A stretch of DNA of 64,000 nucleotides from assembly GCA_017616655.1 (NCBI GenBank), contig JAFZXU010000058.1, positions 9,088 to 73,087 of the forward strand, given 5' to 3'. Below are positions 34,736-51,061 of this stretch, piece by piece. The DNA is from Bacteroidales bacterium. Its GTDB lineage: Bacteria; Bacteroidota; Bacteroidia; Bacteroidales; UBA932. Position numbers and translations under genes: made by a program. Numbering within the stretch: the stretch's first letter is position 1; each line of letters starts with the position of its first letter. The notes below the pieces were generated by a model. It did not search any database, was not told where the DNA came from, and saw only the letters and a list, made by a program, of their open reading frames with translations.

Positions 34736-36656
34736 GGAAGACCTCCATAGCCTGGTACTCGGCCATTCCGAGAGCGTCGTACTGACGGGCCGTATTGGCG
34801 TTGCGCTCCTCGGCGCGCATCCAGAACTCGCGCGGGTCGTCGCCCGGGAAGGGGACGATGTCCTTCTGCGAGAGATGGCGGTAGATGGCGTGACGCTTCT
34901 CCACCACCTCGCCGGGACTCAGGGGAACGGCCATATCCACGCGGCCCAGCTCCCACTCCATCCAGGCGCCTCGGTAGAGCCATATATTGCAGGAATCCAG
35001 CCACTTCTCCCCCTCTTCGCGCAACTGCTCGATAGCCTCGAGGGCCGCTTCGGTGCAGACGCGGTGGGTGCCGTGAGGATCCGCGAGGTCGCCCGCCATA
35101 TAGATCTGGTCGGGCTTGATCTCCTTCATCAGATCCTTTATGATATCCACATCCTTCTGGGTGCGGGGGAACTTTGCCACGCCGCCCGACTCGTAGAAAG
35201 GCAGATTCAGGAAATGGGTGTTCTTCTTGGCGTGGAGGCCGAAACTGCGGACCGCAGCCTTCGCCTCCGAACGGCGGATGGCCGCCTTGAGGGCCAGCAG
35301 TTTGGCAGGTTCGGGCTCGCCCGGAACCTTGGACTCTATCAGGTGGCGGATCTCTGAGAAATTGTCCCCGTAACCCAGCTCCGCGGCGGCGTCGATATGC
35401 TGAAGCACCACGTCGTCGTGGACTGCAAGGTCACCAGAAGTCTGGTAGGCGATATGCACGTTATGCCCCTGGTGGACCAGACGGATGAGGGTGCCTCCCA
35501 TCGAGATGACATCGTCGTCGGGATGGGGCGAGAAGATCAGCACCGTCTTGGGGAAGGGCTCGGAAGCCACCGGACGGGTCGGCTCGTTGGTATTGGGCTT
35601 GCCTCCCGGCCATCCGGTAATGGTATGCTGGAGGTCGTTGAAAATCTCGATATTGATCTTGTCGAAGGGGCCGTAGAGGTCTATCAGCTCGCCGAGGGAG
35701 TTCTGGAGATAATCCTCGTGGGTAAGCTTCAGGATGGGCTTTCGGACCTCGGTGCAGAGCCATACCACGGCCTTGCGGCGGAACTTGCGGGTCCACTCGC
35801 AGGGGCCGATCTTCCAGGGCGCCACCACGCGGGTGAGAAGCGCGCCGGCCGTTTCGTCCACATAGAGCGAAGCGGCAGGATGGTTCTGGAAGCAGGTTGC
35901 GGGGCAGAGGGTGTCCGCAGGGCCTTCGGCGATGTTATAAACCGCCTTCGCCTTCTTCTCGCCCCACGCCATAAGGATCACGCGGCGGGCGCTCATCATG
36001 GTGTCGATGCCCACAGTAAGGGCCGAAGCGGGAGTGTTGGCTATGTCGCCGTTGAAGTTGTGCGCCTGGCGCTTGCGTGAGGCATAAGGCAGAATAACGG
36101 CGCGGGTGCGGCTTCCGAAGGAGGAACCTGCCTCATTGAAGCCCACCTGCCCGTTTTCGCCGATTCCGATCACCAGCAGGTCCACGTTCCGCGCTGCCAG
36201 GTCGAACTCAGCGCAGTACTGCGAGAGGCGTTCCTGCGGCACGGAACCGTCAGGTATGTGGACATTCTCCTTCAGGACGTCGATCTTGTCCACCAGGGAG
36301 TGATGAAGCCGGTAATTGCGGCTCTGCATCTCGTCGCGGCTGCTGGGATAGTACTCGTCGATGGAGAATATCTCCACGTTACGGAAGGAGACCTTTCCCT
36401 GGGAATAGGCCTCGCTCAGGATCCTGTAGAGCAGAAGCGGTGTCGAACCGGTAGTGAGGCCCAGCTTGAAGAGCGGCTTTTCCTCACCGGGAACGAAGGC
36501 GTTGATTTCGGAGATGACCTCATTCGCCACCTCTTCGCTGGCGTGGTAGGGGTCGGGGAAAAGCTCGGTGTAAACCTTGTCGTATCCGTGAAGGATGTCT
36601 TTGGGAAGTCCGGTCTCTATGAGGCCTCCGTCCTTGGGAAGGGAAAAGTGTTTCAT
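34722..36656 (-). CDS. nagB: glucosamine-6-phosphate deaminase fused to a PIG-L/LmbE-type deacetylase domain (long NagB)
   Basis: N-terminal NagB motifs GLTTGSTPLLLY and FSIDEYY. C-terminal PIG-L motif FSPHPDDDVISMGGTL, plus ADPHGTHRVC. Confidence 0.85.
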   Translation of the reverse strand: MKHFSLPKDGGLIETGLPKDILHGYDKVYTELFPDPYHASEEVANEVISEINAFVPGEEKPLFKLGLTTGSTPLLLYRILSEAYSQGKVSFRNVEIFSIDEYYPSSRDEMQSRNYRLHHSLVDKIDVLKENVHIPDGSVPQERLSQYCAEFDLAARNVDLLVIGIGENGQVGFNEAGSSFGSRTRAVILPYASRKRQAHNFNGDIANTPASALTVGIDTMMSARRVILMAWGEKKAKAVYNIAEGPADTLCPATCFQNHPAASLYVDETAGALLTRVVAPWKIGPCEWTRKFRRKAVVWLCTEVRKPILKLTHEDYLQNSLGELIDLYGPFDKINIEIFNDLQHTITGWPGGKPNTNEPTRPVASEPFPKTVLIFSPHPDDDVISMGGTLIRLVHQGHNVHIAYQTSGDLAVHDDVVLQHIDAAAELGYGDNFSEIRHLIESKVPGEPEPAKLLALKAAIRRSEAKAAVRSFGLHAKKNTHFLNLPFYESGGVAKFPRTQKDVDIIKDLMKEIKPDQIYMAGDLADPHGTHRVCTEAALEAIEQLREEGEKWLDSCNIWLYRGAWMEWELGRVDMAVPLSPGEVVEKRHAIYRHLSQKDIVPFPGDDPREFWMRAEERNANTARQYDALGMAEYQAMEVFLKLC

Positions 36657-37846
36657 TTGCGAATCTTATAGCCGTAGTAAGCGTAGTACATTATCAGGAG
36701 ATAGAAGGGCAGGCAGATCCAGTATGCGTTCTGGCTGCCGAGCCAGTCCTTCATGAAGCCGAAGAGTACGGGAATCAGGGCGCCGCCGCCGATGGAGGCC
36801 ACCAGCAGCGAGGATCCCTTCTTGGTGAACTTGCCGAGATCCACGATGGCGAGGGGCCAGATCGCGGGGTACATCAGCGAGCAGGCGAAGCTCAGCAGCG
36901 CCACGAACCATACCGAAACGGGGCCCGGAGTGAGCACTATTGCCAGCGACATTATCACAGCCAGCCAGGTGCAGATTCGCAGAGCCTTGACCTGCGATAT
37001 GTATTTGGGAATGAAGATGATACCGAGTATGTAGCCGGCCGCCATTCCTATTCCGGGCCAGATGGTGTAGTTCTCGGGGTTGGGCAGGCCGAGATCCTTG
37101 GCATAGTCGAGCACCGTGAGCAGCGCAAGGTTCTCCACTCCCACATAGACGAAGAGCGCAAGGGCGCCCAGTATCAGGTGCGGGAACTGCCAGATGCTCT
37201 TCTTGCCGGCGGCGTAGGGGCAGTCCTCCTCGTTCTCCTCTCCCTCCGCCTTGATCTCCTCGAGCGGAGCGAAGAAGGTAAGGATGCCGAGCAGCACCAC
37301 CACGCCGATTATGATGAAAAGGGGCGCATCCAGGTCGTTGAGTCCAACCTGCTCGATGGGTTTGCGGGTGACTGCGGCGATGAATACCGAAGGGAGCGAG
37401 AGGGCCAGCGAATTGCAGATGCCCATTATGCTGATGCGGCGCGCGGCACTGTCGATAGGGCCGAGAATGGTGACATAGGGGTTGATCGCAGCCTGCAGGA
37501 TGGTATTTGCCGTACCGCTGATGAAGCAGGCGAGCAGATAGAGGGCGAAACTCTCCATCCTTGCCGCTGGGATGAACATCGCGAAGGCCACCGCAAAGAG
37601 GAAGAACGAGAGCGACATGGTCCTCTTGTACCCTATCTTGTTGATTATCGAAGAGGCAGGGAAACTGAAGACCAGGAATGCCACGAAGGTGGCCGCCACC
37701 ACGAGGTAGCTCTGGGCGGAGGTCAGGTTCAGGTTGTTCTCCAGGAAGGGTACGAAATAGCCGTTGATGCCCACCGCGAAGCCCACGGTGAAGAACATCA
37801 TCCCTATGAAGGCGAGGGGAACTATGTATTTCTTATTATCTCCCAT
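36653..37846 (-). CDS. MFS sugar permease of the GluP/FucP/NagP type
   Basis: About 12 TM helices. N-terminus MGDNKKYIVPLAFIGMMFFTVGFAVGINGYFVPFL is typical of glucose/galactose-type MFS transporters. ATGA overlap with nagB. Confidence 0.8.
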   Translation of the reverse strand: MGDNKKYIVPLAFIGMMFFTVGFAVGINGYFVPFLENNLNLTSAQSYLVVAATFVAFLVFSFPASSIINKIGYKRTMSLSFFLFAVAFAMFIPAARMESFALYLLACFISGTANTILQAAINPYVTILGPIDSAARRISIMGICNSLALSLPSVFIAAVTRKPIEQVGLNDLDAPLFIIIGVVVLLGILTFFAPLEEIKAEGEENEEDCPYAAGKKSIWQFPHLILGALALFVYVGVENLALLTVLDYAKDLGLPNPENYTIWPGIGMAAGYILGIIFIPKYISQVKALRICTWLAVIMSLAIVLTPGPVSVWFVALLSFACSLMYPAIWPLAIVDLGKFTKKGSSLLVASIGGGALIPVLFGFMKDWLGSQNAYWICLPFYLLIMYYAYYGYKIRK

Positions 37847-37852
37847 AACTGT

Positions 37853-38701
37853 TTAGCTTTCAAGGTGATACTTGATGAGGCCCTCCATCGGGGCCTTGAG
37901 GATGACGCCCATCTTCATTCCGAATTCCTCGACCACGGGCTGCAGCAGCGGCTTGAAGTAGTAGGCCACGCTTCCAACCGCGTTGAAGGTGTATTTCTGA
38001 TAGTTGGGATAGTGGGTGACGATCAGTTTGAAGAACTGGCGGAATGCGTCGGTGACGAGTTCGGGGAAGTAGGGGTCGAAGTCCAGGTTCTGATGGATGA
38101 ACTTGGCGTACTGTGCGCAGAAGCGGTTGGGGAAGGGCTTGGTATAGATGACATCCAGCAGTTCGTCGTTGTTGCGTCCCAGCTCCTTCCCTACGAGGTC
38201 ATAGACCTTCGGCGGCATGTTGCGGCGGATGTAGTCGGTGATGAGCCTCTTGCCGAGATTGCCGCCGCTGCCCTCGTCGCCGAGGATGAAGCCGCAGGAA
38301 TCCACATTGAGTCCCTCGTTGCAGCCGTCGTAGAGGCAGGAGTTGGCTCCAGTGCCCAGGATGGCGGCGAAACCGGATTCCCGCTGGAGCAGCGCCCGGC
38401 ATGAAGCCAGCGTATCCATCGCGATGAATACGGTCGTCACCTTCGTGAAGACCTTGCGGAGGGTCTCCTCCATGAAGGGATACTGCAGGGGCGTAACGCC
38501 AGCTCCGTAGAAATAGATTTCCCTTACATCGTCTACGGGAAAGCCGCCGGGAAGGTTGGCAAGGATGTCCTCAACTATCTGGGGACCTGTGATATAGTTG
38601 GGGTTGTAACCCTGGCTCTGGAAGGTGATGCGGCGGTCGCCGCCCCTTTCCACGCAAGCCCAGTCGGTCTTCGAAGCCCCGCTGTCAGCTATCAGTATCA
38701 T
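37853..38701 (-). CDS. BadF/BadG/BcrA/BcrD-type N-acetyl-sugar kinase (GlcNAc/MurNAc kinase-like)
   Basis: ATPase motifs LIADSGASKTDW, ILGTGANS, GFILGDEGSG. Confidence 0.8.
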   Translation of the reverse strand: MILIADSGASKTDWACVERGGDRRITFQSQGYNPNYITGPQIVEDILANLPGGFPVDDVREIYFYGAGVTPLQYPFMEETLRKVFTKVTTVFIAMDTLASCRALLQRESGFAAILGTGANSCLYDGCNEGLNVDSCGFILGDEGSGGNLGKRLITDYIRRNMPPKVYDLVGKELGRNNDELLDVIYTKPFPNRFCAQYAKFIHQNLDFDPYFPELVTDAFRQFFKLIVTHYPNYQKYTFNAVGSVAYYFKPLLQPVVEEFGMKMGVILKAPMEGLIKYHLES

Positions 38702-38702
38702 C

Positions 38703-39614
38703 TTATTTCTCCTTATTGTCCCAAAGTCCGTGGAGGTCGGGGAAGTCGCCGAGGCCGTAGCGGAAGAGAACCACTCCGACAGCCTCCGATTCGTTGGCGA
38801 ACTCCTGGCAGTCGGCGAGCATCTGCTCGGGGGTCATAGGTATGGGCGTATCGTCATCCGCATCGCCTGCATCCGGACGGTCGCGGTAGGTAGTAGTACC
38901 TGCCCAGACCACTGCGGGCTTGCCCTTCTCTGCGAAATGGTTGGCCACGCGGACTGCCCAGCCGGCGTCATTGTGCTTGTAACCGCCGCTGTAGCGGTAG
39001 ATCATAGGCATAAGGATGTCGAGATACTGACCCATCTGCGCGGGATCCTGGCCGTAGTAGTACTCGCTGTCAGGCTCCGGCATGAGGGCGGCGGAGAGGA
39101 CGACCTTGGGATTGACCTCGCGGACCGCCTCGCTTATCTGGCGGCAGAACTCGGTCACGCAGCCGGTGGCGGTAATCTCCTCCGAAGGATTGTGCTTGTA
39201 AGCAGTGCCGCCGAAGCGTATATAGTCGAGGTGGATGCCGTCAACTCCCCACTTCACATACTGCACGGCGCGGGCGATGACCTCATCGAAAAAATCCTGC
39301 TTGTAGCAGTTGTTCTCGTCGTCAATGGGGTATGCCCACTTTCCGTCCTTTTGGAAAGCCTGGAACCAGATATGGACCTTGCAGCCCTTCTTCTGGGCCT
39401 CCTTGACGAAGGCGAGCGTGGAGTCCACTCCGTGGGCCGTGAAGGCCTTCTCGTGGAGGATTATGTTCTTGATGTCCTTGGAAACCATCTCGTCGATGTT
39501 GACCTCGGTCATATACTTCGACCAGAGCCAGAAGGCGTTGGTGTTGGGCTCTTCTGCCTTCTTGCAGGAGACCAGGGCGAAAAGCGCCAGAGCGGCGATG
39601 AGAAGTCTTTTCAT
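38703..39614 (-). CDS. GHL10/DUF187-like TIM-barrel lipoprotein (putative glycoside hydrolase)
   Basis: Lipobox LFALVSC. GVDGIHLDYIRFGG motif. Paralogue of 45244..46587. Confidence 0.6.
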   Translation of the reverse strand: MKRLLIAALALFALVSCKKAEEPNTNAFWLWSKYMTEVNIDEMVSKDIKNIILHEKAFTAHGVDSTLAFVKEAQKKGCKVHIWFQAFQKDGKWAYPIDDENNCYKQDFFDEVIARAVQYVKWGVDGIHLDYIRFGGTAYKHNPSEEITATGCVTEFCRQISEAVREVNPKVVLSAALMPEPDSEYYYGQDPAQMGQYLDILMPMIYRYSGGYKHNDAGWAVRVANHFAEKGKPAVVWAGTTTYRDRPDAGDADDDTPIPMTPEQMLADCQEFANESEAVGVVLFRYGLGDFPDLHGLWDNKEK

Positions 39615-39625
39615 ATTGTAAATTA

Positions 39626-40687
39626 TTAGAATTCAAGTTCGTAGTAGCGCCCGTTGAAGGTTTCCATTCCCTTCCAGGTAGGAGTTCCGAAGGTTGCGCT
39701 GTTGTTCGAAGGATCGCAGATCCACCACTTTCCGTCGACATAGATTTCGGGAATGACGTGGCCAATGACGCCCGAAGTGAAGTAGCACTGGCCGTGCAGG
39801 TAACGGGCGGGGATGCCGGCTGCGCGGCACATGGCGAGAGTCGCGTGGGTCAGGTCGCAGCAGTTGCCGCCCTTAGCCCTGATGGTTCCGAGAGCACCCT
39901 TCTTAGTATTGGAATAGTTCTCCCACTCCCATTCGTCGCGGGCATATGCGAATATTGCCTCTGCCTTCTGGCGTTCGGTTGCCGAAGCGGAGAGATTCTT
40001 AAGAGCGGCAGCAAGCGTGCTCTTGACCAACTCGTCGTCCTTGGGGCAGTTGCGTGTGGCAGCGAGATAGCTGGAAGGCCATGAAGAGACCTCCTCGGGC
40101 CACTTGCCCTCGTTCTTCACGAAATAGTTCATCGTCCTTGCCAGGACCACCATTGCGGCCCGAAGGTTCATCATGTTGTCGTGCTCGGTAACGACCATCA
40201 GCAGTTTGGGCATATATCCGGGGCTGCTCTGGTCGCTTGAGGGGAATGTGACATAATTGGGCAGGCTGCCGTTGTTCCTGGCATAGTCCGCCATACGGCC
40301 GGCCATATATTTGATATGGGCGAAGTCGATGACGTCGGGGTCGTAGGTATTCCAGCGGTACTCGTCACCGAAGGCGGCGGAGAAGAGGTCGATCTCCTCA
40401 TCCTGCCAGGTGTCGGGCTGGGAGACGATCTTGTCTATCAGCAGGCAGGCCGCTATCGTATAACGTCCCTTGTTGTAGGTGATGCCCTCCACATTGACAC
40501 TCGTGGGAAGCGAGCCGGTCTCCTCGAAAACGTCATAGGCATCTGAGATGGCCTGGGCGAAATGGCCGTTGTAACTGTCGAGGGTAAACTTCTCCTCAGG
40601 CTTCATGGGTTTCAGATTCTCACCGCAGCCTACGGCCGTCAACATGAGCGCACAGAGCGCTGAAACTATTAGCATAGTCCTTTTCAT
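39626..40687 (-). CDS. lipoprotein with PMBR-like repeats plus C-terminal transglutaminase-like cysteine protease core
   Basis: Lipobox LTAVGC (start moved to the ATG at 40687). Repeats ...VFEETGSLPTSVNVEGITYNKGRYTIAACLLIDKI... and ...MADYARNNGSLPNYVTF... Cys-His-Asp core KGGNCCDLTHATLAMCRAAGIPARY / IGHVIPEIYVDGKWWICDP. Confidence 0.7.
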   Translation of the reverse strand: MKRTMLIVSALCALMLTAVGCGENLKPMKPEEKFTLDSYNGHFAQAISDAYDVFEETGSLPTSVNVEGITYNKGRYTIAACLLIDKIVSQPDTWQDEEIDLFSAAFGDEYRWNTYDPDVIDFAHIKYMAGRMADYARNNGSLPNYVTFPSSDQSSPGYMPKLLMVVTEHDNMMNLRAAMVVLARTMNYFVKNEGKWPEEVSSWPSSYLAATRNCPKDDELVKSTLAAALKNLSASATERQKAEAIFAYARDEWEWENYSNTKKGALGTIRAKGGNCCDLTHATLAMCRAAGIPARYLHGQCYFTSGVIGHVIPEIYVDGKWWICDPSNNSATFGTPTWKGMETFNGRYYELEF

Positions 40688-40747: not shown

Positions 40748-42262
40748 CTAGTTTATACCGTAGAGATCGAAGCTGAACTGCTGGTCTTTGATGGCGGTAT
40801 ATACATTTTCGTTGACATTGTTGTCAAGGATGTACTTGTAGATGCGCATCAGCACCATCAGTTCGCGCATCGGGGAGATGAGGCCCTCATAGCCGGTGAG
40901 GTTGAGGGTACCGGAGGTGGTGCCGAACTGCTGGAAGTTGCCGACCATGCCGAGAGGGCTGTTGCTGCCCACGGCGACGAAGCTGCGGACCACGTGCCAT
41001 GCACCGACCTTCACCATGAAGTTGACGTCGACGGTCGAAATCGCCTGGCCGTCCTTCTTCACGAGGTCGTCGAACTCATACCAGGGGTTCTTGCCCCACT
41101 TGTTGGCTGCCGAAGGGGAAGGCATCGCACTCGACATCGCCTTGTTGTCCTTGAGGGTATATGCCTTGTTGCGGTCGGTCATGCCGTTGAGGAACTCCTC
41201 GCCCTCCTCGGTAACCATGTTCAGCAGACCGCGGATTGCGATCTCCCAAGCCTGCGATGAGGTATAAGTAGTACCCTTGATATCGAGGGTCCAGGGGGTC
41301 TTGCCGTCGTCGTACTGGTTGTTGCCGTAATCCTTGAAGTCGGAGTTGTTGGTATTGCCGATAGGAATGTAGTGGACGTTGGTCCAGCCGCCCTTCGCAC
41401 TCTTGGAGTTGCGCTCGCCGTCAGCATCGATGTTGCCTACGGTATTCTGCCATACGTCGAGGCCCTTTACGAATTCCGTTGCGAAATCCTTCAGGGAAGG
41501 AGCGCTGACGTCACCGTTCTCGCCATAGAGGAAGAAGTTGAACTGCTGGTCCTTGATGGCGGTGTAGACATTCTCTTCGATGTTGTTGTCGAGCAGATAC
41601 TTGTAGATACGCATCAGCACCATCAGCTCGCGCATCGGGGAGATGAGGCCCTCATAGCCGGTGAGGTTGAGGGTACCGGAGGTGGTGCCGAACTGCTGGA
41701 AGTTGCCGATCATGCCGAGAGGGCTGTTGCTGCCCACGGCGACGAAGCTGCGGACCACGTGCCATGCGCCGACCTTCACCATGAAGTTGACGTCGACCGT
41801 CGAAATCGCCTGACCGTCCTTCTTCACGAGGTCGTCGAACTCATACCAGGGGTTCTTGCCCCACTTGTTGGCTGCGGATGCGGAAGGCATTGCGCTGCCG
41901 AGGCCCTTGTTGTCCTTGAGGGTGTATGCCTTGTTGCGGTCGGTCATGCCGTTGAGGAACTCCTCGCCCTCCTCGGTAACCATGTTCAGCAGACCGCGGA
42001 TTGCAATCTCCCAAGCCTGCGATGAGGTGTACTGCTTGCCGTCGATGGTAAGGGTCCAGGGGGTCTTGCCGTCGTCGTACTGGTTGTTGCCGTAATCCTT
42101 GAAGTCGGAGTTGTTGGTATTGCCGATAGGAATGTAGTGGACATTGGTCCAGCCGCCCTTCACGCTCTGTGAGTTGCGCTCGCCGTCAGCATCGACGTTG
42201 CCTACGGTATTCTTCCAGACATCGAGGCCCTTGACGAATTCCTTTGCGAAATCCTTCAGGGA
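40748..42262 (-). repeat. near-identical tandem duplication, period 765 bp (255 codons), forming the last two modules of the giant gene
   Basis: gcatcagcac at 40846 recurs at 41611. I see only 5 mismatches between 40851..41110 and 41616..41875. There are 19 amino-acid differences over 247 aligned residues. Confidence 0.9.
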
Positions 42263-45202
42263 AGGACCCGTAGCGGGAAGGTCATAGAGAGCCGTGCTGA
42301 TGTCGACATTGCTCGTTGCGCTCACGACATTGGTGGTGATGTTGTTCCTGACCACATAGTCGAACCAGCGGGACATCATAAGGAAGTCGCGCTCGAGGCA
42401 GACATAGCCGTTGTAGGTGGTCAGCACGGGGTCCGATGTACGGGGATAGCCGCAGACATTGGGCCACTCGCCGTTGCTCTTGATATAGTTGAGGCAGCGG
42501 GTGGCGAAGTTCGAAAGGAGGTCGGTCTTTGCCACGGTCTCCTTGAGTCCGTCGCCATACTCGTGCCAGCGTGCAGAAGCTGCATCATAGCTCTTGGGAG
42601 CGGTGACCTTGTCGCTCATCTTGCCGCCGTTCTCGAGGGCCTTGAAGGCGTTGAGGGCGATTTCGTGCATCTGGTACTTGTCATAGGTATTGCCCTTGAC
42701 GGTGATGGTGAAGGAGTCGGGAACGTAGTGTACATTCTCCTTCTTGTAGCTGGTGCCGTTGAAGGTGTATTCCACGTTGCCGGTAGTGGTCTCCCAGACC
42801 TGAGCCGCCCTTGCGAATTCGGTAGCAAATTCCGCAATAGTCGGAGTGTTGTCGACCGGGGCAGCGCCCTGGTTGTAGAGGTCGAAGCTGAACTTCTGGT
42901 TCTTGATGGCGTCATAGACATTCTCGTTGATGTTGTTGTCGAGGATGTACTTGTAAATACGCATCATGACGAGGAGCTCACGCATAGGGGAAATCAATCC
43001 GTCGTAGCCGTCAAGGTTCAAAGTGCTTGAAGAGGTGCCGAACTGCTGGAAGTTGCCGACATTGCCGAGCGGGCTGTTGCTGCCCACTGCGATGAAGGAA
43101 CGGACCACGTGCCATGCGCCCACCTTGATCATGAAGTTGATGTCGACAGTCTCGATCTTCTGGCCGTTGTAGGTGACAAGGTCGGAGTTTGCTCCCTCAT
43201 ACCAGGGATGGCCGCCCCACTTGTTGTTGGAGGAAGGATTAGGTATGGCCGCGGTGTTGAATGCCTTGTTGTTGCCAAGGGTGTAGGCCTTGTTGCGGTC
43301 GGTCATGCCGTCGAGGAATGCCTCGCCTTCGGTGGTGACCAGATTCATCAGACCGCGGATAGCGATTTCCCATGCCTGGTTCGAGGTGATTTCCTGACCG
43401 TTGACATTGAGTTTCCAGGGAGTGTACTGGGGATCGTACTGGTTGCCTGCATGACCCTGGTAAGCACTGCCGATATCGCCGACAGGGATGAAATGTACAT
43501 TCTGCCATGCGGTGCCCTTCTCGATAAGGTGCTCACCTTCAGACTCGACAGTACCTACTGTTGCCTCCCAGACATCGAGGCCCTTTACGAATTCGGTTGC
43601 GAAATCCTTGAGGGTTCCGTTGAGTGCGACGTATGCGCCCTGGTTGACAGCGATCTCAAGGCCATCGGTGATGTTGCCGCCCTTGAGGACCACCTTGCCG
43701 CTGCGCTCGGCGCCGGTATTGGCGTCGGCGGAGATGGCGATGGAAACATCGCCGGCTGCACCGGAAGCGGGATCGACATGGATCCATGCGTCGGATGCGG
43801 TTGCGGTCCAGTTTTTCTTGGCCGAGAAGGTAGCGTTGACAGCAGTTCCGTCGAACTTGAGGTCGACCTTCTTGGTCTTGAGTTCGATGTCGGGCATCTC
43901 CACGCCGTAGAGGTCGGTGTCGAACTTGACATCCTTGACTGCGTCATAGACGTTCTCGGTGATGTCGTTGTCGAGCAGATACTTGTAGAAGCGGGCTGCA
44001 ATCAGCCACATACGCATCGAGCTGACGAAGCCGGATACGCCCTCCTCGACGAAGCCTTCGTCGGGATTGGTGCTGAAGTACTGGTAGTTACCGATCTTGC
44101 CGAGGGCGACCTGGCGGGTAAGGAACCAGGAAGCGCAGCGTGCGATAAGGTACGGGCTGAATTCCGTGAGGTTGATTGCCGGACCGTCGTTGGTGCTCTC
44201 ATACCAGGGATACTGTCCCCAGATGTCCACATCGGTAACTGCGGGGATGGGCTCCTTGAGGGTCTTGCCGTTACCCATCGTATGCTCGAACGGGTTGCGG
44301 TTCTGCTGCATCTTGGCGGAACCTTCTACGGTGATCAGGTCCATGATACCGCGGAGTGCGATACCCCAGGTCTGTGCAGAAGTGTAGGTGGTGCCGTCGA
44401 TGGTGACGGTGAAGTAAGGCTGGTACTTCGCATCGTACTGGTCAACGCCGTCGGCATAAGCGCCGCCAGACCAGGGAATGGGAACGAAGTGTACATCCTT
44501 CCATGCCGAATTGTTGTCGGTGTAGTGCGAACCGTCGGCGGAGACGGTACCCACGGTGTTCTGCCAGATGTCGAGAATCTGGACGAACTGCTGTGCGAAG
44601 CCCTTGAGGGTTGCGGCTGCGGAGAGATACTCGGTGTCCACCTTTGCAGGGAGGGAACCTGCATCCTTGTAAGCCGCCAGTGCACGCAGCACGGTAACGG
44701 TGAGGCGGTTCGTGGAGAACGCCAGGGCGTCGTCATTGCCCCTGGTTACGAGAGTCTGGTTGGGGACCTGGCCCTTCGCCTTCATGGCGTCGAGGAACTT
44801 CTGTGCGAGGTTTACGAGATCCTCGGTACCCTCCTTGATCGCAGGGCCGCCCTTCATGGCGATTTCAGCTTTGTCGTAGCTGTCACGTTCCGGGTGGTCT
44901 GCAGCCTTGTAGCCGTAGACCTTGATGTCAGACTTGTCGCCGGCAGCAATGCCGGTGAGCAGCTTTGCGATGGCATACTGGTACTGGGGAAGGGTGAGGT
45001 TGTTCGAACCTACCTGAAGGGTTTCAGGGATGGTCGTATTCTCCTCCCAGGCTGCAAATGCCGCAGCTGCCGCATCGAGCAGGTCAGCCTGCTTGACTGT
45101 TGCGACTACTTTTACGTCGCCTTCCTCTTCCGGATCCACGCAGGAGTTGAAGAGGGACAATGCCGCTACTGCGACAGTCATTAACAGAAAGAATTTCTTC
45201 AT
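40748..45202 (-). CDS. 1484-aa modular surface lipoprotein: N-terminal PMBR-like domain, five ~190-255-aa repeat modules, one BACON domain
   Basis: Lipobox LSLFNSC. Modules at about aa 198-435, 530-777, 788-975, 981-1235 and 1236-1484, each starting (T/S)LKDFA.EFV..LDVW..TVG. BACON-like segment at aa ~446-525. No catalytic motif recognised. Confidence 0.8.
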   Translation of the reverse strand: MKKFFLLMTVAVAALSLFNSCVDPEEEGDVKVVATVKQADLLDAAAAAFAAWEENTTIPETLQVGSNNLTLPQYQYAIAKLLTGIAAGDKSDIKVYGYKAADHPERDSYDKAEIAMKGGPAIKEGTEDLVNLAQKFLDAMKAKGQVPNQTLVTRGNDDALAFSTNRLTVTVLRALAAYKDAGSLPAKVDTEYLSAAATLKGFAQQFVQILDIWQNTVGTVSADGSHYTDNNSAWKDVHFVPIPWSGGAYADGVDQYDAKYQPYFTVTIDGTTYTSAQTWGIALRGIMDLITVEGSAKMQQNRNPFEHTMGNGKTLKEPIPAVTDVDIWGQYPWYESTNDGPAINLTEFSPYLIARCASWFLTRQVALGKIGNYQYFSTNPDEGFVEEGVSGFVSSMRMWLIAARFYKYLLDNDITENVYDAVKDVKFDTDLYGVEMPDIELKTKKVDLKFDGTAVNATFSAKKNWTATASDAWIHVDPASGAAGDVSIAISADANTGAERSGKVVLKGGNITDGLEIAVNQGAYVALNGTLKDFATEFVKGLDVWEATVGTVESEGEHLIEKGTAWQNVHFIPVGDIGSAYQGHAGNQYDPQYTPWKLNVNGQEITSNQAWEIAIRGLMNLVTTEGEAFLDGMTDRNKAYTLGNNKAFNTAAIPNPSSNNKWGGHPWYEGANSDLVTYNGQKIETVDINFMIKVGAWHVVRSFIAVGSNSPLGNVGNFQQFGTSSSTLNLDGYDGLISPMRELLVMMRIYKYILDNNINENVYDAIKNQKFSFDLYNQGAAPVDNTPTIAEFATEFARAAQVWETTTGNVEYTFNGTSYKKENVHYVPDSFTITVKGNTYDKYQMHEIALNAFKALENGGKMSDKVTAPKSYDAASARWHEYGDGLKETVAKTDLLSNFATRCLNYIKSNGEWPNVCGYPRTSDPVLTTYNGYVCLERDFLMMSRWFDYVVRNNITTNVVSATSNVDISTALYDLPATGPSLKDFAKEFVKGLDVWKNTVGNVDADGERNSQSVKGGWTNVHYIPIGNTNNSDFKDYGNNQYDDGKTPWTLTIDGKQYTSSQAWEIAIRGLLNMVTEEGEEFLNGMTDRNKAYTLKDNKGLGSAMPSASAANKWGKNPWYEFDDLVKKDGQAISTVDVNFMVKVGAWHVVRSFVAVGSNSPLGMIGNFQQFGTTSGTLNLTGYEGLISPMRELMVLMRIYKYLLDNNIEENVYTAIKDQQFNFFLYGENGDVSAPSLKDFATEFVKGLDVWQNTVGNIDADGERNSKSAKGGWTNVHYIPIGNTNNSDFKDYGNNQYDDGKTPWTLDIKGTTYTSSQAWEIAIRGLLNMVTEEGEEFLNGMTDRNKAYTLKDNKAMSSAMPSPSAANKWGKNPWYEFDDLVKKDGQAISTVDVNFMVKVGAWHVVRSFVAVGSNSPLGMVGNFQQFGTTSGTLNLTGYEGLISPMRELMVLMRIYKYILDNNVNENVYTAIKDQQFSFDLYGIN
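43628..43867 (-). other. BACON-like domain within the giant lipoprotein
   Basis: VDLKFDGTAVNATFSAKKNWTATASDAWIHVDPASGAAGDVSIAISADANTGAERSGKVVLKGGN fits the W..-..WI...P..G.....I.....N....R pattern of BACON domains. Confidence 0.55.
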
Positions 45203-45243: not shown

Positions 45244-46587
45244 TTATTTCAAATCGTTCACATCGGGGAATTTTCCGAGGCCGCAGCGGAAAAGCACGAG
45301 GCCGTCGGCCTTTGAGTCCATGAAGACGTCGATGTCCTTCCTGAGCTGCTCGGCCGTCATCCCCTTGACGCCGCCGGAATCGTTGCCCGTATAGGTCGTG
45401 ATGCCGGCCCATACCTGGGCGCCGCCGGAGTTGTCGCAGAACCAGTTGACGATCGACTTGCAGCCGGAATCCGACCAGTTATAGGAGTAACGGTAGCACA
45501 TCGGCATCAGGACGTGGATGTATTTTCCCATCAGGACGGGACTCTGTCCGTAATATTCCGTGGAATTGCGCTCCGGCATCAGGGCGGCGCTTGTCACCAA
45601 CCCTTCGTCGAAACTGTCGGCAATCTCACGGATCTCCTGGCAGCATCGGTTTACGGCGCCGACAGCGTTGACCGTAGCCGAAGGGTTGTGCTTGTAGGCG
45701 GTGCCGCCGAAGCGGATATAATCCAGATGCAGCCCCTTCACGCCGAACTCCTCGAGATAGGTCTTCGCGTGTTTGCGGATATCTGCGAATACCTCCTCCT
45801 TATAGCAGGCCCTGGCATCGTCCACCGGATTGATCCAGTCGCCTTTGTAGAAACACTGCATCCAGCAGTGTACCGCAAGACCCAGTTCCTCGCATTTCTC
45901 GATGAAAGGAACCGTATTCTTTATATTATAGGACTCGAATGCCGCGTAGTTCAGGAGGATATGGTGATATCCGAGACGCTTGAACTCCTTCAGCTGCGCA
46001 GCATCGTTTTCCATCAGTCCAGAAATGTGGGAACTCCAGGTCCAGATGGCGGTATGGGGAGTCGCATCTATATCGAAGACCTCGTTGACTCTGCCCTTGC
46101 TGGGATAGGTCAGCCTGCGCCAGGCTCCGAGGCCGTCGGGAATCCTCTGGTAACTTCCCCTGCGGGTAAGGGTGTCGGGGAAATCCTTCGAGCGGTCGAA
46201 GATGTCCACCGTCGCCGTTCCGATTCCAAGGCGCAGTTCGAACTGCGAGTCGGAGGCGATGCCGGTGGCGAGGGATTCGTCCTCCGTGGAAGCCACTATC
46301 CTTTCACCGGAAGCTAATTTTGCACCCTGTGGCGCGCTCCAGACGCACTTGCCGTCAAAATACTGGTCGGTCAGGTAGAGTCCTACGCCATTCAATGCAA
46401 TCTCGGCGGAGGACGTATTCGTTATCTCCACCCAGCTTACGGCGTCGGACTTCTCATCGTGGGCGGAAATCTCATTGATGACAAGCCCTTTGAGATGGTC
46501 CACGGAAGGTTCCTTCCCGCAGGTGGCAGCCATGAGCATCACGCAGGCGGAAAACAGCGCATAAGCGATATGTCTCCTTATTCTCAT
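45244..46587 (-). CDS. lipoprotein: lamin-tail-domain (LTD)-like N-terminus plus GHL10/DUF187-like TIM barrel
   Basis: Lipobox LMAATC. LVINEISAHDEKSDAVSWVEITNTSSAEIALNGVGLYLTD (LTD-like). VKGLHLDYIRFGGTAYKHNP... is colinear with 38703..39614. Confidence 0.6.
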   Translation of the reverse strand: MRIRRHIAYALFSACVMLMAATCGKEPSVDHLKGLVINEISAHDEKSDAVSWVEITNTSSAEIALNGVGLYLTDQYFDGKCVWSAPQGAKLASGERIVASTEDESLATGIASDSQFELRLGIGTATVDIFDRSKDFPDTLTRRGSYQRIPDGLGAWRRLTYPSKGRVNEVFDIDATPHTAIWTWSSHISGLMENDAAQLKEFKRLGYHHILLNYAAFESYNIKNTVPFIEKCEELGLAVHCWMQCFYKGDWINPVDDARACYKEEVFADIRKHAKTYLEEFGVKGLHLDYIRFGGTAYKHNPSATVNAVGAVNRCCQEIREIADSFDEGLVTSAALMPERNSTEYYGQSPVLMGKYIHVLMPMCYRYSYNWSDSGCKSIVNWFCDNSGGAQVWAGITTYTGNDSGGVKGMTAEQLRKDIDVFMDSKADGLVLFRCGLGKFPDVNDLK

Positions 46588-47429
46588 TTGGACGAATTCT
46601 GGTTAGTGATTCCGTTGTCAAGCAGGTATTGTTCAGCCTTCTTGAGGCCTCCGGTCTTCTTGATGATCTCTTCGCAATACTCGTAGCTCAGGCCGGGATT
46701 GCGCTCGACCATGGTGCGGGTGAGGCGGTCCACAACCTTGTTGTTGATGAGGTTCGCCATCACCATACGGTTGCCCTCCACGCGGCCGAGGCGACACATT
46801 ATCGTTGTGCTGATCATGTCGCAGAGGAGCTTCTGCGAGGTGCCGGATTTCATCCTGGTGCTGCCGGTGATGAATTCGGGGCCGGTGATTATCTCGATGG
46901 GATAATCCACATATTCCGAAATCGGGGAGCCGGGATTGTTGCAGATGCTTCCGCAGGGGATCCCGTTCTCCTTGCAGGCCTTCATGGCAGCCAGGACGTA
47001 AGGGGTGCAGCCGCTGGCGGAGATGCCTACGACTATGTCCTTCGGAGTGATGTAATGCTTGTCGCGGAGGGTTCTCCACCCCTCCTCGATGTCGTCTTCG
47101 GCCTCCTCTAGGTCGAGAACGAGGTTTTCAACCCCTCCTGCAAGCACGGCCTGCCATATCTCGGGATCGACTCCGTAGGTGTTGGGCACCTCGAGGATGT
47201 CGAGGACCGCAAGCTTGCCTCCGGTGCCGCAGCCGAGATAGAACATCCTGCCTCCGGCGCGGATTGTGGCCTCTATGGCCGAAACGAGTTTTTCAATGTC
47301 GGGAAGAACCTTCTCGATTGCAAGGGGCACCTTCTTGTCCTCCTGATTGATGTCGTGCAGGAGCTCGGCCACCGACTTGGTCTCCAGGTGGTCGTAAAGC
47401 GAAGGCTGTTCTGTTAATCTAAGTGACAT
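46584..47429 (-). CDS. murQ: N-acetylmuramic acid 6-phosphate etherase
   Basis: SIS-domain protein colinear with E. coli MurQ as I remember it (DINQEDKKVPLAIEKVLPDI, YLGCGTGGKL, GISASGCTPYV, GSTRMKSGTSQKL). ATGA overlap with the downstream gene. Confidence 0.88.
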   Translation of the reverse strand: MSLRLTEQPSLYDHLETKSVAELLHDINQEDKKVPLAIEKVLPDIEKLVSAIEATIRAGGRMFYLGCGTGGKLAVLDILEVPNTYGVDPEIWQAVLAGGVENLVLDLEEAEDDIEEGWRTLRDKHYITPKDIVVGISASGCTPYVLAAMKACKENGIPCGSICNNPGSPISEYVDYPIEIITGPEFITGSTRMKSGTSQKLLCDMISTTIMCRLGRVEGNRMVMANLINNKVVDRLTRTMVERNPGLSYEYCEEIIKKTGGLKKAEQYLLDNGITNQNSSK

Positions 47430-47434
47430 TTGGG

Positions 47435-49273
47435 TTAGAATTCTTTATATTTTGTCTGCCCTATCTGCTTCCCGTCACGGAAGGCGGCTGCGGTGACCCT
47501 CTGCTGGCGGTTGATGACGAACGGCATCTCGTAGAGCTGCGAGGAGGCCGTAGGCCGGCTGCCGTCGAGGGTGTAGCGGATCTCGGCGTCGGGAGCGTCG
47601 ACCGAGATGGTCACCACCATATCGTGGGGCGTATCTTTATGGAATTCGATGAAAGGGTTGTGGAAGGCGTCGCAATAGCCTACGCCGAGGTTGGAGAGCC
47701 TGCCGAGGTGATGCTCGAGCCTGCGGGTGAAGTTGTCCCAGTCCTTTTCGGGAGCGCTCCAGCCGGCTTCAGCGATGGCGCACATCCTGGGCCATGCCAT
47801 ATATTCCACGCGTGCGGGGGTGGGCATATATTCGGTCCAGACGCATCCCTCCACTCCTATTATATATCGCGCCTCCTCCGGGGTGAGAACCGCCGGAACG
47901 GGCTCGTATTCATACATCGTGCGAAGCGTGGTGGGGCCGTCCATGGCCAGCGGCTCGCTGTCGGGATCGGCCTGCCAGTAATCCAGATAATACTTCGGAT
48001 AGGGGGCCATCACCGCCTCGTGGTGCTGCTGGGCGGCCTTGATGCCTCCCTCTTCCCCGAGCCAGCTCATCACCTTCGCATTCGGTGCGAGACCGCCCTG
48101 GAGGATTTCGTCCCATCCGATAATCTCGTGTCCCTTGGAGTTGATGTACTTCTCCATGCGGGTTATGAACCAGCTCTGGAGCTCGAATTCATCCTTGAGG
48201 CCAAGCTGGCGGATAAGTTTCTGGCAGTGTTCGCACTGCTTCCAGCTCGTCTTGGGGCACTCGTCGCCGCCGATGTGCACCAGCTTGCTCGGGAAGAGTT
48301 CGAAGACCTCGTCCATCACGTCCTCGAGGAACTTGAAGGTCTCCTCCTTGGGGCAGAATACCTGCTTGAATACGCCCCATTTGGTAGCGGTCTCGTAGTG
48401 GTCCTCCAGACCGCAGGAGAGTTCGGGGTAGCATGAGATGGCCGCCAGCGCGTGGCCGGGCATCTCTATCTCCGGAATGATGGTCACATAGCGCTCCGCG
48501 GCATACTTCACGAGGTCGCGCACCTCATCCTGGCTGTAATAGCCGCCGTGAGGGGTGCCGTCATAGACGCCGCTCTTGAGCGAGCCGATGACCGTCTCCT
48601 TGCGCCACTGGCCCTTCTCGGTCAGAAGCGGGTATTTCTTGATTTCGAGGCGCCAGCCCTGGTCTTCGGTGAGATGCCAGTGGAAGCGGTTCACCTTGTG
48701 GAGGGCCATCACGTCGATATATTTCTTCAGGAATTCGATCTCAAAGAAGTGGAGGCAGCAGTCCAGATGCATTCCGCGGTAAGGGAAGCGGGGCGCATCC
48801 TCGATGCTGCAGCAGGGCACCTGCCACTTCACTCCGGATGCCTTTTTGGCAGAGAAGATCTCGGTCGGCAGCAGCTGCAGCAGGGTTTGGAGGCCATAGA
48901 AGGCTCCCGCCCCGTCGCCGTAGTCGATCACTATCCTGCCAGGCTCCACGCGGAGTTCGTAACTCTCCGCGGACAGGCCGGCATCGAGGAAATAGATGCC
49001 TTTTTCGTGGGACGAAAGGTCTGCCTCGCGCACCTCGAGCTCGAATCCTGCGGCGGTGCGCAGCTTCTCATTGAGGAAGCCGGCGATACGCTCAAGTTCT
49101 TCCGAGCCGGCTTCGATGAAGACCGGCGTGGACCTGGTGATGGTGAACGTCCCATCCGCCATCTCGAGATGGTGCGGTTTGGGAATGACGCTCACGGTGC
49201 CCTTCTGCCCGGCCGGAGCCGTACAGGAGAGCACGAATGCCATAGCGGCGATGATGGAAACTATCTTTTTCAT
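47435..49273 (-). CDS. GH20 beta-N-acetylhexosaminidase (lipoprotein) with C-terminal CHB_HEX_C-like domain
   Basis: HWHLTEDQGWRLEIKKYP, IPEIEMPGH, HIGGDECPK. C-terminal IRYTLDGSRP. Confidence 0.9.
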   Translation of the reverse strand: MKKIVSIIAAMAFVLSCTAPAGQKGTVSVIPKPHHLEMADGTFTITRSTPVFIEAGSEELERIAGFLNEKLRTAAGFELEVREADLSSHEKGIYFLDAGLSAESYELRVEPGRIVIDYGDGAGAFYGLQTLLQLLPTEIFSAKKASGVKWQVPCCSIEDAPRFPYRGMHLDCCLHFFEIEFLKKYIDVMALHKVNRFHWHLTEDQGWRLEIKKYPLLTEKGQWRKETVIGSLKSGVYDGTPHGGYYSQDEVRDLVKYAAERYVTIIPEIEMPGHALAAISCYPELSCGLEDHYETATKWGVFKQVFCPKEETFKFLEDVMDEVFELFPSKLVHIGGDECPKTSWKQCEHCQKLIRQLGLKDEFELQSWFITRMEKYINSKGHEIIGWDEILQGGLAPNAKVMSWLGEEGGIKAAQQHHEAVMAPYPKYYLDYWQADPDSEPLAMDGPTTLRTMYEYEPVPAVLTPEEARYIIGVEGCVWTEYMPTPARVEYMAWPRMCAIAEAGWSAPEKDWDNFTRRLEHHLGRLSNLGVGYCDAFHNPFIEFHKDTPHDMVVTISVDAPDAEIRYTLDGSRPTASSQLYEMPFVINRQQRVTAAAFRDGKQIGQTKYKEF

Positions 49274-51060
49274 TTTCCAAACTCCCTTGTCATAAGCACG
49301 CCCAGGGGCTCTCCGTCGGCCGTGAAGCCGCGGGCCTTTATGACATCGCCTTTATCTACTCTCAACAAAGTCGGTGCCACGGGCGAAGAGGCGTCAGGCT
49401 CCGTGCCGTCCGTGGTATAGCGCACGACCGCGCCTGGAACGTCGATCTCGAGTTCCACGTCGCGCGGATACTCCTCTTCGAGGTTCATATTCACGATGAC
49501 ATTGTAGAATGCCCTGCTGTAGTTGATGCCTCGGGCGTCAAGCCGCTCGAACTCCTTAGGAATGCGGGTGCAGAAGTCGGCGAAATCGCGCCTTTCGTCC
49601 CGGCTCCAGCAGAACTCGGCAATTGCGGCAGCGCGCGGGAAGGCCTGATGCTCAAGCTGTTTCGTATCGGGGATAAACTCTCCCCAGACGCAGGATTCCC
49701 AGCCGAGGATCAGATTTCCCTTGGCATTCATCAGCGAGTCGCCTATCTGAGCCACGGGGTCGTAGTTGTAGGCCTTGCGCAGCGTGATGAAGAGGTGGTG
49801 GTTCCTCGGGATATCCTCGATTTCGTTCTGGTGATAGTCGTAGTAGCACCAGCGGTTGGGGCAGAGAATCACCTTCATGTCGCGCTCCATAGCCCTGATT
49901 GCGGGCTTGTGGCCGCGGTACGACATAACTATCGTGCTCTGCACGGCGCTGCCGTCGAGGATTTCATCCCATCCGATAACGGTCCTGCCCCTCTCGCGAA
50001 GGTAGGTGTCGAAATGCTTGACGAAATAGTACTGGAGGTCGTCCACTCCGGAAAGGCCGAGTTCCCCGGCCAGTTTTTTGCAATAGTCGCTGTTCCGCCA
50101 GGCGGTCTTGGGGCATTCGTCCCCGCCGATGTGGATGTAGGGACCGGGGAAGAGTTCCAGCACCTCGTCGAAGACATCCTCGAGGAACGAGATCGTCTCG
50201 GGCGAGGGGCAGAAGACATCCTCCTTGATTCCCCAGGTCGTAGCCACCTTCTTGGGCTCGTCAGGCTTGCACGAAAGGAAGGGATATGCCGCGATGGCGG
50301 CGCTGGCATGGCCGGGGAGTTCGATTTCGGGGATAACGGTGATGAAGCGGCGGCGTGCATACTCCACTATGTCGCGGATTTCGTCCTGGGTGTAGAAACC
50401 GCCGTGGCGGGTTCCGTCGCCCTCGTCGTCATATCCGGCGGTCTCGTCTCGCCAGGCTCCGACTTCGGTCAGGAGGGGATATTTCTTTATCTCTATGCGC
50501 CACCCCTGGTCCTCGGTGAGGTGCCAGTGGAAGCGGTTCTGCTTGTGCATCGCCATCATGTCGAGGAACTCCTTTACGGTCTCGACCGGATAGAAGTAGC
50601 GGCAACAGTCGAGCTGCATACCGCGCCAGGCTACCCTGGGAGCATCTTCGATGAGACAGCTCTGCGCCTCCCACTTCACGCCCTCCACCTTCGTGGCGGA
50701 ATAGGCGGCTCCGGGAAGCAGCTGGCGGAAACTCTGGAGGCCGTAGAAGGCCCCCGCAGGGGTCGAGGCGAAGATTCTCACCCGCCTGTGGCCCACCTCG
50801 AGCCGGTAGCCCTCCTCCGCTATGCTTTCATCCTTCTCGAGGATGACGGCGCGGCAGAAGGGATATCTCCTTGCGGGGATGTCGTACCCGGTGGGAACCG
50901 AGAACTCCTCCCTGAAATCGGCCGCCACCTCGTCGAACCCGGCGCAGTGCGAGACTACAGCCGCGTGAGGGCCGAAGATGAACGAGCCGTCGCGCTCCAC
51001 TACGGAAGCGGGCTGCGGAATGATGGAGACGGAGAGGAGTATGGCAAGCAGAAACTTCAT
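49270..51060 (-). CDS. GH20 beta-N-acetylhexosaminidase (second, diverged copy)
   Basis: HWHLTEDQGWRIEIKKYP, IPEIELPGH, HIGGDECPK. C-terminal VRYTTDGTEP. ATGA overlap with the downstream GH20. Confidence 0.9.
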   Translation of the reverse strand: MKFLLAILLSVSIIPQPASVVERDGSFIFGPHAAVVSHCAGFDEVAADFREEFSVPTGYDIPARRYPFCRAVILEKDESIAEEGYRLEVGHRRVRIFASTPAGAFYGLQSFRQLLPGAAYSATKVEGVKWEAQSCLIEDAPRVAWRGMQLDCCRYFYPVETVKEFLDMMAMHKQNRFHWHLTEDQGWRIEIKKYPLLTEVGAWRDETAGYDDEGDGTRHGGFYTQDEIRDIVEYARRRFITVIPEIELPGHASAAIAAYPFLSCKPDEPKKVATTWGIKEDVFCPSPETISFLEDVFDEVLELFPGPYIHIGGDECPKTAWRNSDYCKKLAGELGLSGVDDLQYYFVKHFDTYLRERGRTVIGWDEILDGSAVQSTIVMSYRGHKPAIRAMERDMKVILCPNRWCYYDYHQNEIEDIPRNHHLFITLRKAYNYDPVAQIGDSLMNAKGNLILGWESCVWGEFIPDTKQLEHQAFPRAAAIAEFCWSRDERRDFADFCTRIPKEFERLDARGINYSRAFYNVIVNMNLEEEYPRDVELEIDVPGAVVRYTTDGTEPDASSPVAPTLLRVDKGDVIKARGFTADGEPLGVLMTREFGK

Positions 51061-51061
51061 C

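Follow-up and report, generated by a model that had tools for sequence, protein, structure and literature searches.

Pseudomurein-binding domains, Sus-type lipoproteins and the protein studied here

The pseudomurein-binding (PMB) domain of PeiW, PeiP, PeiR and the S-layer protein MTH719, entered in Pfam as PMBR (PF09373), is characterized by tandem helix/Pro-turn/strand motifs of 30-35 aa, three or four per domain. In the archaeal-virus pseudomurein endoisopeptidases (Pei) these binding repeats are followed by a Cys-peptidase core. Here we describe a lipoprotein of an uncultured rumen Bacteroidales bacterium for which the PMB/PMBR domain of the Pei enzymes and MTH719 is the closest known entity. 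The protein, termed the target, is the product of open reading frame (ORF) 40748..45202 on the minus strand of a 64,000-nt stretch of DNA, the window, in which all coordinates are counted; the ORF starts with ATG and codes for 1484 aa (161 kDa). The first-pass annotation of this DNA had given the same positions but no strand. The ORF was confirmed on the minus strand, and a plus-strand reading of 40748..45202 was rejected, as it is riddled with stops. The target lies outside the Pfam family, but presumably works like PMB domains. Most likely it represents an enlarged bacterial form derived from the PMB domain, present in several copies, and acts as the binding protein of a locus harvesting peptidoglycan.

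Our sequence comparisons suggest that the target is probably a non-catalytic, multivalent lipoprotein that binds cell-wall glycans and takes the surface glycan-binding role in a peptidoglycan-harvesting polysaccharide utilization locus (PUL) of rumen Bacteroidales. The first-pass annotation had named it the surface glycan-binding protein (SGBP) of the locus. The lipobox, the acidic residues behind the lipidated Cys, the conserved PUL and the partners of related modules all agree with this part of the claim, while binding, ligand and surface exposure are what we infer from them.

Like SusE and SusF, the target is a lipoprotein encoded within a SusC/SusD operon, as seen from its lipobox and the same-strand gene order, and it combines tandem non-catalytic domains with an acidic motif behind the Cys. 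Moreover, one relative (P0195) joins a SusE N-terminal domain to a single module of the kind found in the target. It differs from SusE and SusF in its much larger size (161 kDa, six domains) and in its position away from susD. Its modules are alpha/beta, whereas SusE/F have beta-sandwich folds resembling carbohydrate-binding modules (CBMs), and it contains no SusE/SusF domain; the SusE N-terminal domain PF14292 gave no Pfam match in the target. LysM, SH3b, SPOR and PG_binding_1 domains share with it the proposed non-covalent binding of cell-wall glycans, the frequent tandem arrangement and the attachment to cell-wall hydrolases. However, none of them was detected in the target by Pfam, and they are related to its modules neither in sequence nor in structure. 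The MurT-MurK-MurQ system of Tannerella forsythia is comparable to the locus in gene content, as MurQ occurs here together with an MFS sugar transporter and a small sugar kinase, putative counterparts of MurT and MurK, and an APH-family kinase adjoins. In contrast to that system, the genes sit here in a full SusCD PUL together with surface lipoproteins and a giant binding protein.

Six related domains in the target lipoprotein

The target starts with MKKFFLLMTVAVAALSLFNSC, a lipoprotein signal (aa 1-21, 45140..45202; all features of the target are on the minus strand). Its translation contains the lipobox LSLFNSC noted before, with Cys21 as the lipidated residue. In Bacteroidota, acidic residues behind the lipidated Cys constitute a surface-export signal for lipoproteins. 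The corresponding stretch of the target reads CVDPEEEGD, and at least two D/E are found at positions +2 to +7 after the Cys in 95 of 115 homologues, frequently in the form C-K-D/E. The acidic residues of the target resemble this export signal, so that a location on the cell surface seems plausible.

The mature protein is divided into an N-terminal minimal PMBR-type domain (N-domain; aa 22-197, 44612..45139), module M1 of the long type A1 (aa 198-445, 43868..44611), a BACON segment (aa 446-529, 43616..43867), module M2 of the long type A (aa 530-787, 42842..43615), module M3 of the short, diverged type B (aa 788-980, 42263..42841) and two further type A modules, M4 (aa 981-1235, 41498..42262) and M5 (aa 1236-1484, 40751..41497). 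The five repeat modules of the first-pass annotation were recovered both by pattern search and by pairwise BLASTP of excised segments. Module openings of the form (T/S)(L/I)(K/A)(D/G/E)FA are located at aa 198, 530, 788, 981 and 1236, and four of the five modules close with ...YKY(I/L)LDN(N/D)...NVY...DLY. The modules were excised before comparison; a self-BLAST of the whole protein returned the identity match alone. M4 and M5 share 92% identity (E 1.7e-176), M2 is 65-67% identical to both (E 1e-118 to 1e-124), and M1 shows 37-39% identity to M2, M4 and M5 (E 1e-52 to 1e-57). M3, with 193 aa, turned out to be the shorter and diverged variant it had been taken for (24-25% identity to the remaining modules, E 1e-11 to 1e-14). 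These similarities are far beyond chance, and at the DNA level the gene contains direct repeats with a period of 765 nt and 88-93% identity.

The BACON segment expected between modules 1 and 2 was found by Pfam (PF13004, aa 464-521, E 3.7e-9, 36.9 bits at a gathering cut-off of 25). Apart from BACON, no Pfam-A family passed, either with the whole target or with its six domains scanned singly at E<=10. NCBIfam gave no match to the target, and neither the target nor the module and N-domain profiles matched PDB sequences. Pfam, NCBIfam and PDB sequence searches thus detected no catalytic family in the target, as the first-pass annotation had held, which does not prove absence of activity. Its suggestion that the modules are possibly undescribed likewise stands, with BACON as the sole match in these libraries and a model of M2 that remained without Foldseek match. 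A C-terminal sorting domain of the type IX secretion system (T9SS), reported absent before, was not matched by NCBIfam or Pfam either; the protein terminates inside M5.

The relation to PMBR was traced through the adjoining gene (39626..40687, minus strand), which according to Pfam encodes a lipoprotein with a minimal PMBR-type N-terminal half and a transglutaminase-like Cys-peptidase core. Profile comparisons with hhalign were run on mature sequences without signal peptides and with reversed-sequence controls. The N-half of this neighbour aligned to the N-domain of the target with 98.2% probability (E 2.8e-14; reversed control 0.2%), to M3-type modules with 92.7% (E 4e-7; control 0.9%) and to M1-type modules with 89.6% (E 1.9e-6; control 0.2%), while the N-domain aligned to M3-type modules with 71% (E 3.7e-5; control 0.2%). 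The second of these values bears out the proposed colinearity of M3 with the N-terminal half of the transglutaminase lipoprotein. Comparisons of the N-domain with types A, A1 and C and of the neighbour N-half with types A and C were not used, having E-values of 0.007-0.04 against 0.01-0.1 for the reversed controls. The long and short modules can be sorted into types A, A1, B (resembling M3) and C, the last of which is not found in the target. In profile-profile comparison all four are homologous (pairwise probability >=99.8%; B versus A 99.8%), and among the modules M3 comes nearest to the minimal domain. As hhalign links the neighbour N-half to the N-domain, M3 and M1, the target is shown by these alignments to consist of six related domains, a minimal one at the N-terminus and five enlarged ones, with a seventh copy in the neighbouring peptidase. 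The N-terminal domain of ∼175 aa had been described as separate from the modules. Its existence holds, but it belongs to the same domain type as the modules and is thus the sixth copy in the protein, in minimal form.

By the same profile alignments, common descent is shown for the target domains and the PMBR-bearing half of the neighbouring peptidase. The N-domain shows the PMBR pattern of tandem motifs with three helices, each followed by a G-x-[LIVW]-P-x-x-V-type motif (NTTIPETLQV, KGQVPNQTLV, AGSLPAKVDT). In its model these correspond to the helix/strand pairs H17-34/E40-43, H108-122/E128-131 and H143-160/E166-168, and the three-motif pattern is conserved over the 36 sequences of an alignment of N-domains and neighbour N-halves (A2). 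The long modules have degenerate versions of these motifs (HFIP, GNFQQF, NNINENV). Pfam PMBR scored the neighbour N-half with 24.2 bits, just under the cut-off of 24.9 (E 3.2e-5, aa 128-156, one motif repeat), and PF09373 is precomputed in 7 of 13 homologues of the neighbour. Weak support also comes from A2, where PMBR was found in 6 of 36 members at a lax E<=10, four A2 members being neighbour N-halves. A search with the module profile recovered PMBR-annotated proteins such as P0271 (Pfam PMBR E 1.3e-11). The target differs from known PMB domains in that the motifs are packed into discrete globular domains of 170-255 aa instead of a string of 30-35-aa repeats, and in that the five long modules carry insertions of ∼45 aa and ∼25 aa.

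Models calculated with AlphaFold2 were of high confidence for M2 (predicted local distance difference test, pLDDT, 94.6; predicted template modelling score, pTM, 0.92; alignment of 44 module sequences) and for the N-domain (pLDDT 93.2, pTM 0.89). When the N-domain model was compared to 350,542 PDB chains with Foldseek, the top four matches were PeiP (8z4f_A), PeiR (8z4n), PeiR (8z4h) and chain B of PeiP. The match is modest in score yet appears specific, because all four top chains out of this set are Pei enzymes, and it is consistent with what the sequences show. The minimal domain type is thus predicted to resemble the region by which the archaeal-virus enzymes PeiP and PeiR bind pseudomurein. 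Together with the chain of profile comparisons, these matches support the PMBR-like character attributed to the protein in the first-pass annotation. The order of helices and strands is identical in the M2 and N-domain models, with M2 being extended behind helix 1 as well as between helices 2 and 3. Therefore, the models argue for the long module being an enlarged PMBR-type domain, whose overall fold would have no solved counterpart.

The polar residues H41, E140, N188 and R212 (M2 numbering) are kept in all long and short modules, and N227 is also invariant or near-invariant. Confidently folded units of ∼250 aa with such a set of (near-)invariant residues could be expected of a new family of cell-wall hydrolases or lyases, which would provide the muramidase apparently missing from the locus. 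We regard this as improbable. Neither H41 nor E140 is retained by the minimal domains, as seen both in A2 and in the hhalign alignment, and an enzyme would not usually come in five to six tandem copies. In addition, the modules are homologous to a known binding domain and are found appended to bona fide enzyme domains, SusE, fimbrillin and leucine-rich repeat (LRR) scaffolds, and two TIM-barrel proteins of the DUF4015 type encoded in the locus are better candidates for the missing glycosidase. The opposite view, that the target has no ligand of its own and is an inert spacer or scaffold organizing a surface enzyme complex, could draw on its BACON domain and on the indirect nature of the case for a ligand. 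It is, however, very improbable in view of positions strongly conserved over highly diverged modules, of the relationship to PMB binding domains and of the repeated recruitment of the modules to varied enzymes and adhesin scaffolds.

The locus and its probable cell-wall substrate

The target is part of a same-strand operon in the order SusC, SusD, ceramidase-like lipoprotein, GH20, GH20, MurQ, LTD+DUF4015-like protein, target, PMBR+transglutaminase lipoprotein, DUF4015 lipoprotein, 282-aa kinase-like protein, MFS transporter and NagB+PIG-L fusion. According to Pfam, the SusC-like protein is a TonB-dependent transporter (54401-57499, minus strand, as are all genes of the operon) and is followed by a SusD-like lipoprotein (52412-54394), the pair marking the locus as a PUL. 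Pfam and NCBIfam assigned the genes at 46584..52408 to the ceramidase-like lipoprotein, two GH20 beta-N-acetylhexosaminidases and MurQ. The LTD (lamin-tail) lipoprotein encoded at 45244..46587, a putative glycoside hydrolase, was recognized by Pfam LTD and by a DUF4015 cross-match of its TIM-barrel. Beyond the neighbouring peptidase gene, library scans placed the DUF4015 lipoprotein, the kinase-like protein, an MFS transporter of the NagP/GluP type and the NagB+PIG-L fusion at 34722..39614; this group would cover the last, cytoplasmic part of amino-sugar breakdown. Upstream of SusC, housekeeping genes are found.

A scan of one genome per GTDB species, queried with the single target protein, yielded 17 loci, all from gut Bacteroidales-type metagenome-assembled genomes (MAGs), including Candidatus Cryptobacteroides; 14 of them explicitly originate from goat, yak, buffalo or cattle forestomach. 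In those of the 3 metagenome and 17 GTDB loci examined that have enough flank, the gene order is retained with target identities down to 41%. The neighbouring peptidase gene always adjoins the target, and the LTD+DUF4015-like gene is matched by a DUF4015 protein at 40-44%.

MurQ, the MurNAc-6-phosphate etherase (MurNAc, N-acetylmuramic acid), was identified by NCBIfam with 284.5 bits at a cut-off of 168 and lies within the operon of all relatives retaining that flank, with 77-90% identity. The GH20 proteins matched only generic hexosaminidases in PDB, which do not discriminate between substrates. In three related loci (L001-L003, where the target is 57% identical) the operon goes on with a C45 (AAT) acyltransferase/hydrolase, a glutamate:sodium symporter and an 877-aa fusion of an M20 and a C1-like peptidase (18548-23560 in L001 and L002); these genes are not at this position in the window. 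This extension suggests that the use of stem peptides and glutamate is tied to the locus. Taken together, MurQ, hexosaminidases, catabolism of N-acetylglucosamine (GlcNAc) and peptide/glutamate handling point to bacterial peptidoglycan as the probable substrate of the locus. A PUL for chitin or N-glycans was ranked low on account of MurQ being conserved inside the operon.

We propose that, after lipidation, the acidic residues behind Cys21 would route the target to the outer face of the outer membrane. There its six modules, spaced by BACON, may hold a GlcNAc-containing cell-wall glycan with high avidity, which would consist of murein strands or sacculus fragments of lysed rumen bacteria. The substrate would thereby be kept beside surface enzymes: the neighbouring peptidase, with its own copy of the binding domain, could cut peptide cross-links, and the LTD-DUF4015 protein is presumed to cut the glycan. 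Fragments would enter via SusCD and be trimmed in the periplasm by the GH20 enzymes and a putative ceramidase-like amidohydrolase. GlcNAc and MurNAc may then be taken up through the MFS transporter and phosphorylated, with MurQ and NagB/PIG-L leading to glycolysis.

Several observations weigh against this reading. SusE/F-type binding proteins are usually encoded directly downstream of susD, and the target gene is not. No recognizable muramidase family was found in the locus by Pfam or NCBIfam, and the conserved H41, E140, N188 and R212 of the modules could mark an active site. PMBR (PF09373, cut-off 24.9) did not match the target, either as a whole at E<=1 or as single domains at E<=10, and it is precomputed in none of the 120 listed homologues. 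Foldseek gave best E-values of 2 (PDB) and 2.2 (BFVD) for the M2 model, i.e. no match. The match of the N-domain to PeiP 8z4f_A is borderline (E 1.3e-3, probability 0.98, 164 columns, TM 0.33); the matches behind it have E-values of 0.19-0.86, those to PeiR 8z4n and 8z4h with probabilities of 0.66-0.69. PMB domains experimentally bind pseudomurein, and the PMB domain of MTH719 (isoelectric point, pI, 10.6) bound lysozyme-treated cells, but neither intact murein nor chitin (PMC3466432). Unlike this basic domain, all six domains of the target are acidic (pI 4.6-5.4). Therefore, binding by the modules is unlikely to use the same electrostatics as MTH719 PMB.

The neighbouring lipoprotein shares with the Pei enzymes the order of a PMBR-type domain in front of a transglutaminase-fold Cys peptidase, an order also present in P0234 and P0269. 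As an observation in its own right, this domain order equals that of the archaeal-virus pseudomurein endoisopeptidases, but occurs here in a bacterium. The core contains the motifs GNCCD...GHV...CDP and was assigned to Pfam Transglut_core (E 1.4e-18), with 3isr as the single PDB sequence match (E 8.8e-9). Orthology to Pei was rejected for the neighbour, as there was no C71 or Pei sequence match, but only generic Transglut_core and 3isr.

This layout bears on the question whether the locus is aimed at archaeal pseudomurein instead, with modules binding the wall of rumen Methanobrevibacter, the neighbour acting as a Pei endoisopeptidase and methanogens being scavenged or attacked. Methanogens are abundant in the ruminant forestomach. 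The 14 forestomach MAGs among the 17 genomic relatives would fit such a target, as would GH20 enzymes, which could take off beta-linked GlcNAc or N-acetylgalactosamine (GalNAc), and PeiP and PeiR are the best structural matches of the N-domain. Furthermore, pseudomurein is the only experimentally defined ligand of the PMB motif (PMC3466432). Nevertheless, we consider this explanation unlikely. Pseudomurein is devoid of MurNAc-6-phosphate, the substrate of the MurQ conserved in the operon, and no gene for talosaminuronic-acid catabolism is evident. The core of the neighbour matches generic Transglut_core and 3isr, but neither the Pei structures nor peptidase C71, and PMBR-type domains also occur in dockerin- or lipobox-bearing proteins, which points to bacterial contexts. 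The host of the target is itself bacterial, and the MurQ context favours murein over pseudomurein. That rumen Bacteroidales both bind and dismantle the pseudomurein of methanogens, with modules latching onto Methanobrevibacter and the neighbouring peptidase cutting isopeptide cross-links, is quite unlikely.

The two DUF4015-type TIM-barrel lipoproteins are candidates for the muramidase or endo-glycosidase otherwise missing from the locus, and a distant relative of the target (P0168) has a module fused to this very DUF4015 domain. Neither the LTD+DUF4015-like protein (45244-46587) nor the DUF4015 lipoprotein (38703-39614) has a meaningful sequence relative in PDB.

Distribution of the modules, their partners and the surroundings of the locus

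A database search returned 212 relatives of the target, all from uncultured Bacteroidales and either without a name or entered as "BACON domain-containing protein". Common to these relatives is a constant head (N-domain, M1, BACON, M2) in front of a variable tail, with 3-6 modules in total. The module family is rare, with 158 proteins at E<=1e-3 in a full hidden Markov model (HMM) scan of 1.84 billion representative proteins. Outside the target architecture, modules are joined to a DUF4015 hydrolase-like domain (P0168), a calcineurin-like phosphoesterase (P0164), the SusE N-terminal domain mentioned above (P0195, one module), an Mfa-type fimbrillin (P0172), BspA leucine-rich repeats (P0175), BACON domains (P0165, P0166, P0198) and a beta-propeller (P0193). 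The minimal form of ∼170 aa precedes transglutaminase cores in tandem (P0234, P0269) or a dockerin (P0271), or occurs by itself in tandem-repeat proteins (P0252, P0256). This range of partners, with unrelated enzymes, SGBPs and adhesin scaffolds, is typical of a non-catalytic binding module.

The fusions of single modules to Mfa-type fimbrillin and BspA LRRs, together with the very large repeat structure of the target and the turnover or homogenization of its C-terminal modules, could also indicate that the target is mainly an adhesin, which attaches via cell-wall glycans to particles or to living cells, Gram-positive or other, and does not feed SusCD. This is doubtful, as the operon around the target is a catabolic SusCD operon wherever enough flank is available, and modules are joined to a SusE domain and enzymes as well. 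Adhesion and substrate capture are compatible with one another.

M4 and M5, 91% identical to each other in this comparison, are only 65-72% identical to the orthologous modules of P0002, a homologue with 78% identity to the target. In P0002, and likewise in P0012, it is M2 and M4 that resemble each other most (84-86%). Since similarity of type A modules is higher within a protein than between orthologues, and since the pattern is lineage-specific, the sequences indicate ongoing duplication or gene conversion of type A modules, probably acting in a concerted manner within lineages. M1 and M3, in contrast to type A, evolve as stable orthologues. Duplication or homogenization of the C-terminal type A modules is in line with a surface repeat protein being selected for avidity or reach.

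Provided that they bind peptidoglycan, the modules would form a new CBM-like family, namely a bacterial branch of the archaeal PMB domain that is enlarged and for whose fold no relative has been solved, and would mark a conserved SusCD-based locus for the harvesting of bacterial cell walls. In the rumen, such walls make up a large pool rich in nitrogen and carbon. The full-text literature searched, the coverage of which is incomplete and leaves novelty unproven, contained no description of a dedicated peptidoglycan PUL, of such a locus or of the protein. The two DUF4015 TIM-barrels, the ceramidase-like lipoprotein and the PMBR-transglutaminase peptidase are candidates for new cell-wall-degrading activities, and the modules could be put to use as probes or anchoring tags for cell walls, as is already done with LysM and PMB domains. 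Should the ligand be pseudomurein after all, the locus would bear directly on methane mitigation as a natural lever on ruminant methane output, and to our knowledge it would be without precedent among bacterial systems, none of which is known to lyse methanogens or to feed on them.

Some further features of the locus may be mentioned. The ceramidase-like lipoprotein (448 aa, 51062-52408, minus strand) weakly matches the N-terminal part of neutral/alkaline ceramidases (Pfam E 1.7e-8), and its gene directly follows SusD in nearly all related loci. It may act as an amidase or deacetylase on muropeptides. The gene at 34722-36656 (minus strand) encodes the fusion of glucosamine-6-phosphate deaminase-like (NagB) and PIG-L deacetylase domains, and its 3' end overlaps with the gene of an APH-family phosphotransferase on the opposite strand (33494-34735, plus strand), which may resemble an AmgK-type anomeric MurNAc/GlcNAc kinase. 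The distal edge of the locus carries a DeoR-family regulator (32173-32937) and a tyrosine recombinase (31214-32173), both on the minus strand, and an unusual fusion of a PAP2 phosphatase and a lipoate-protein ligase (29257-30903, plus strand).

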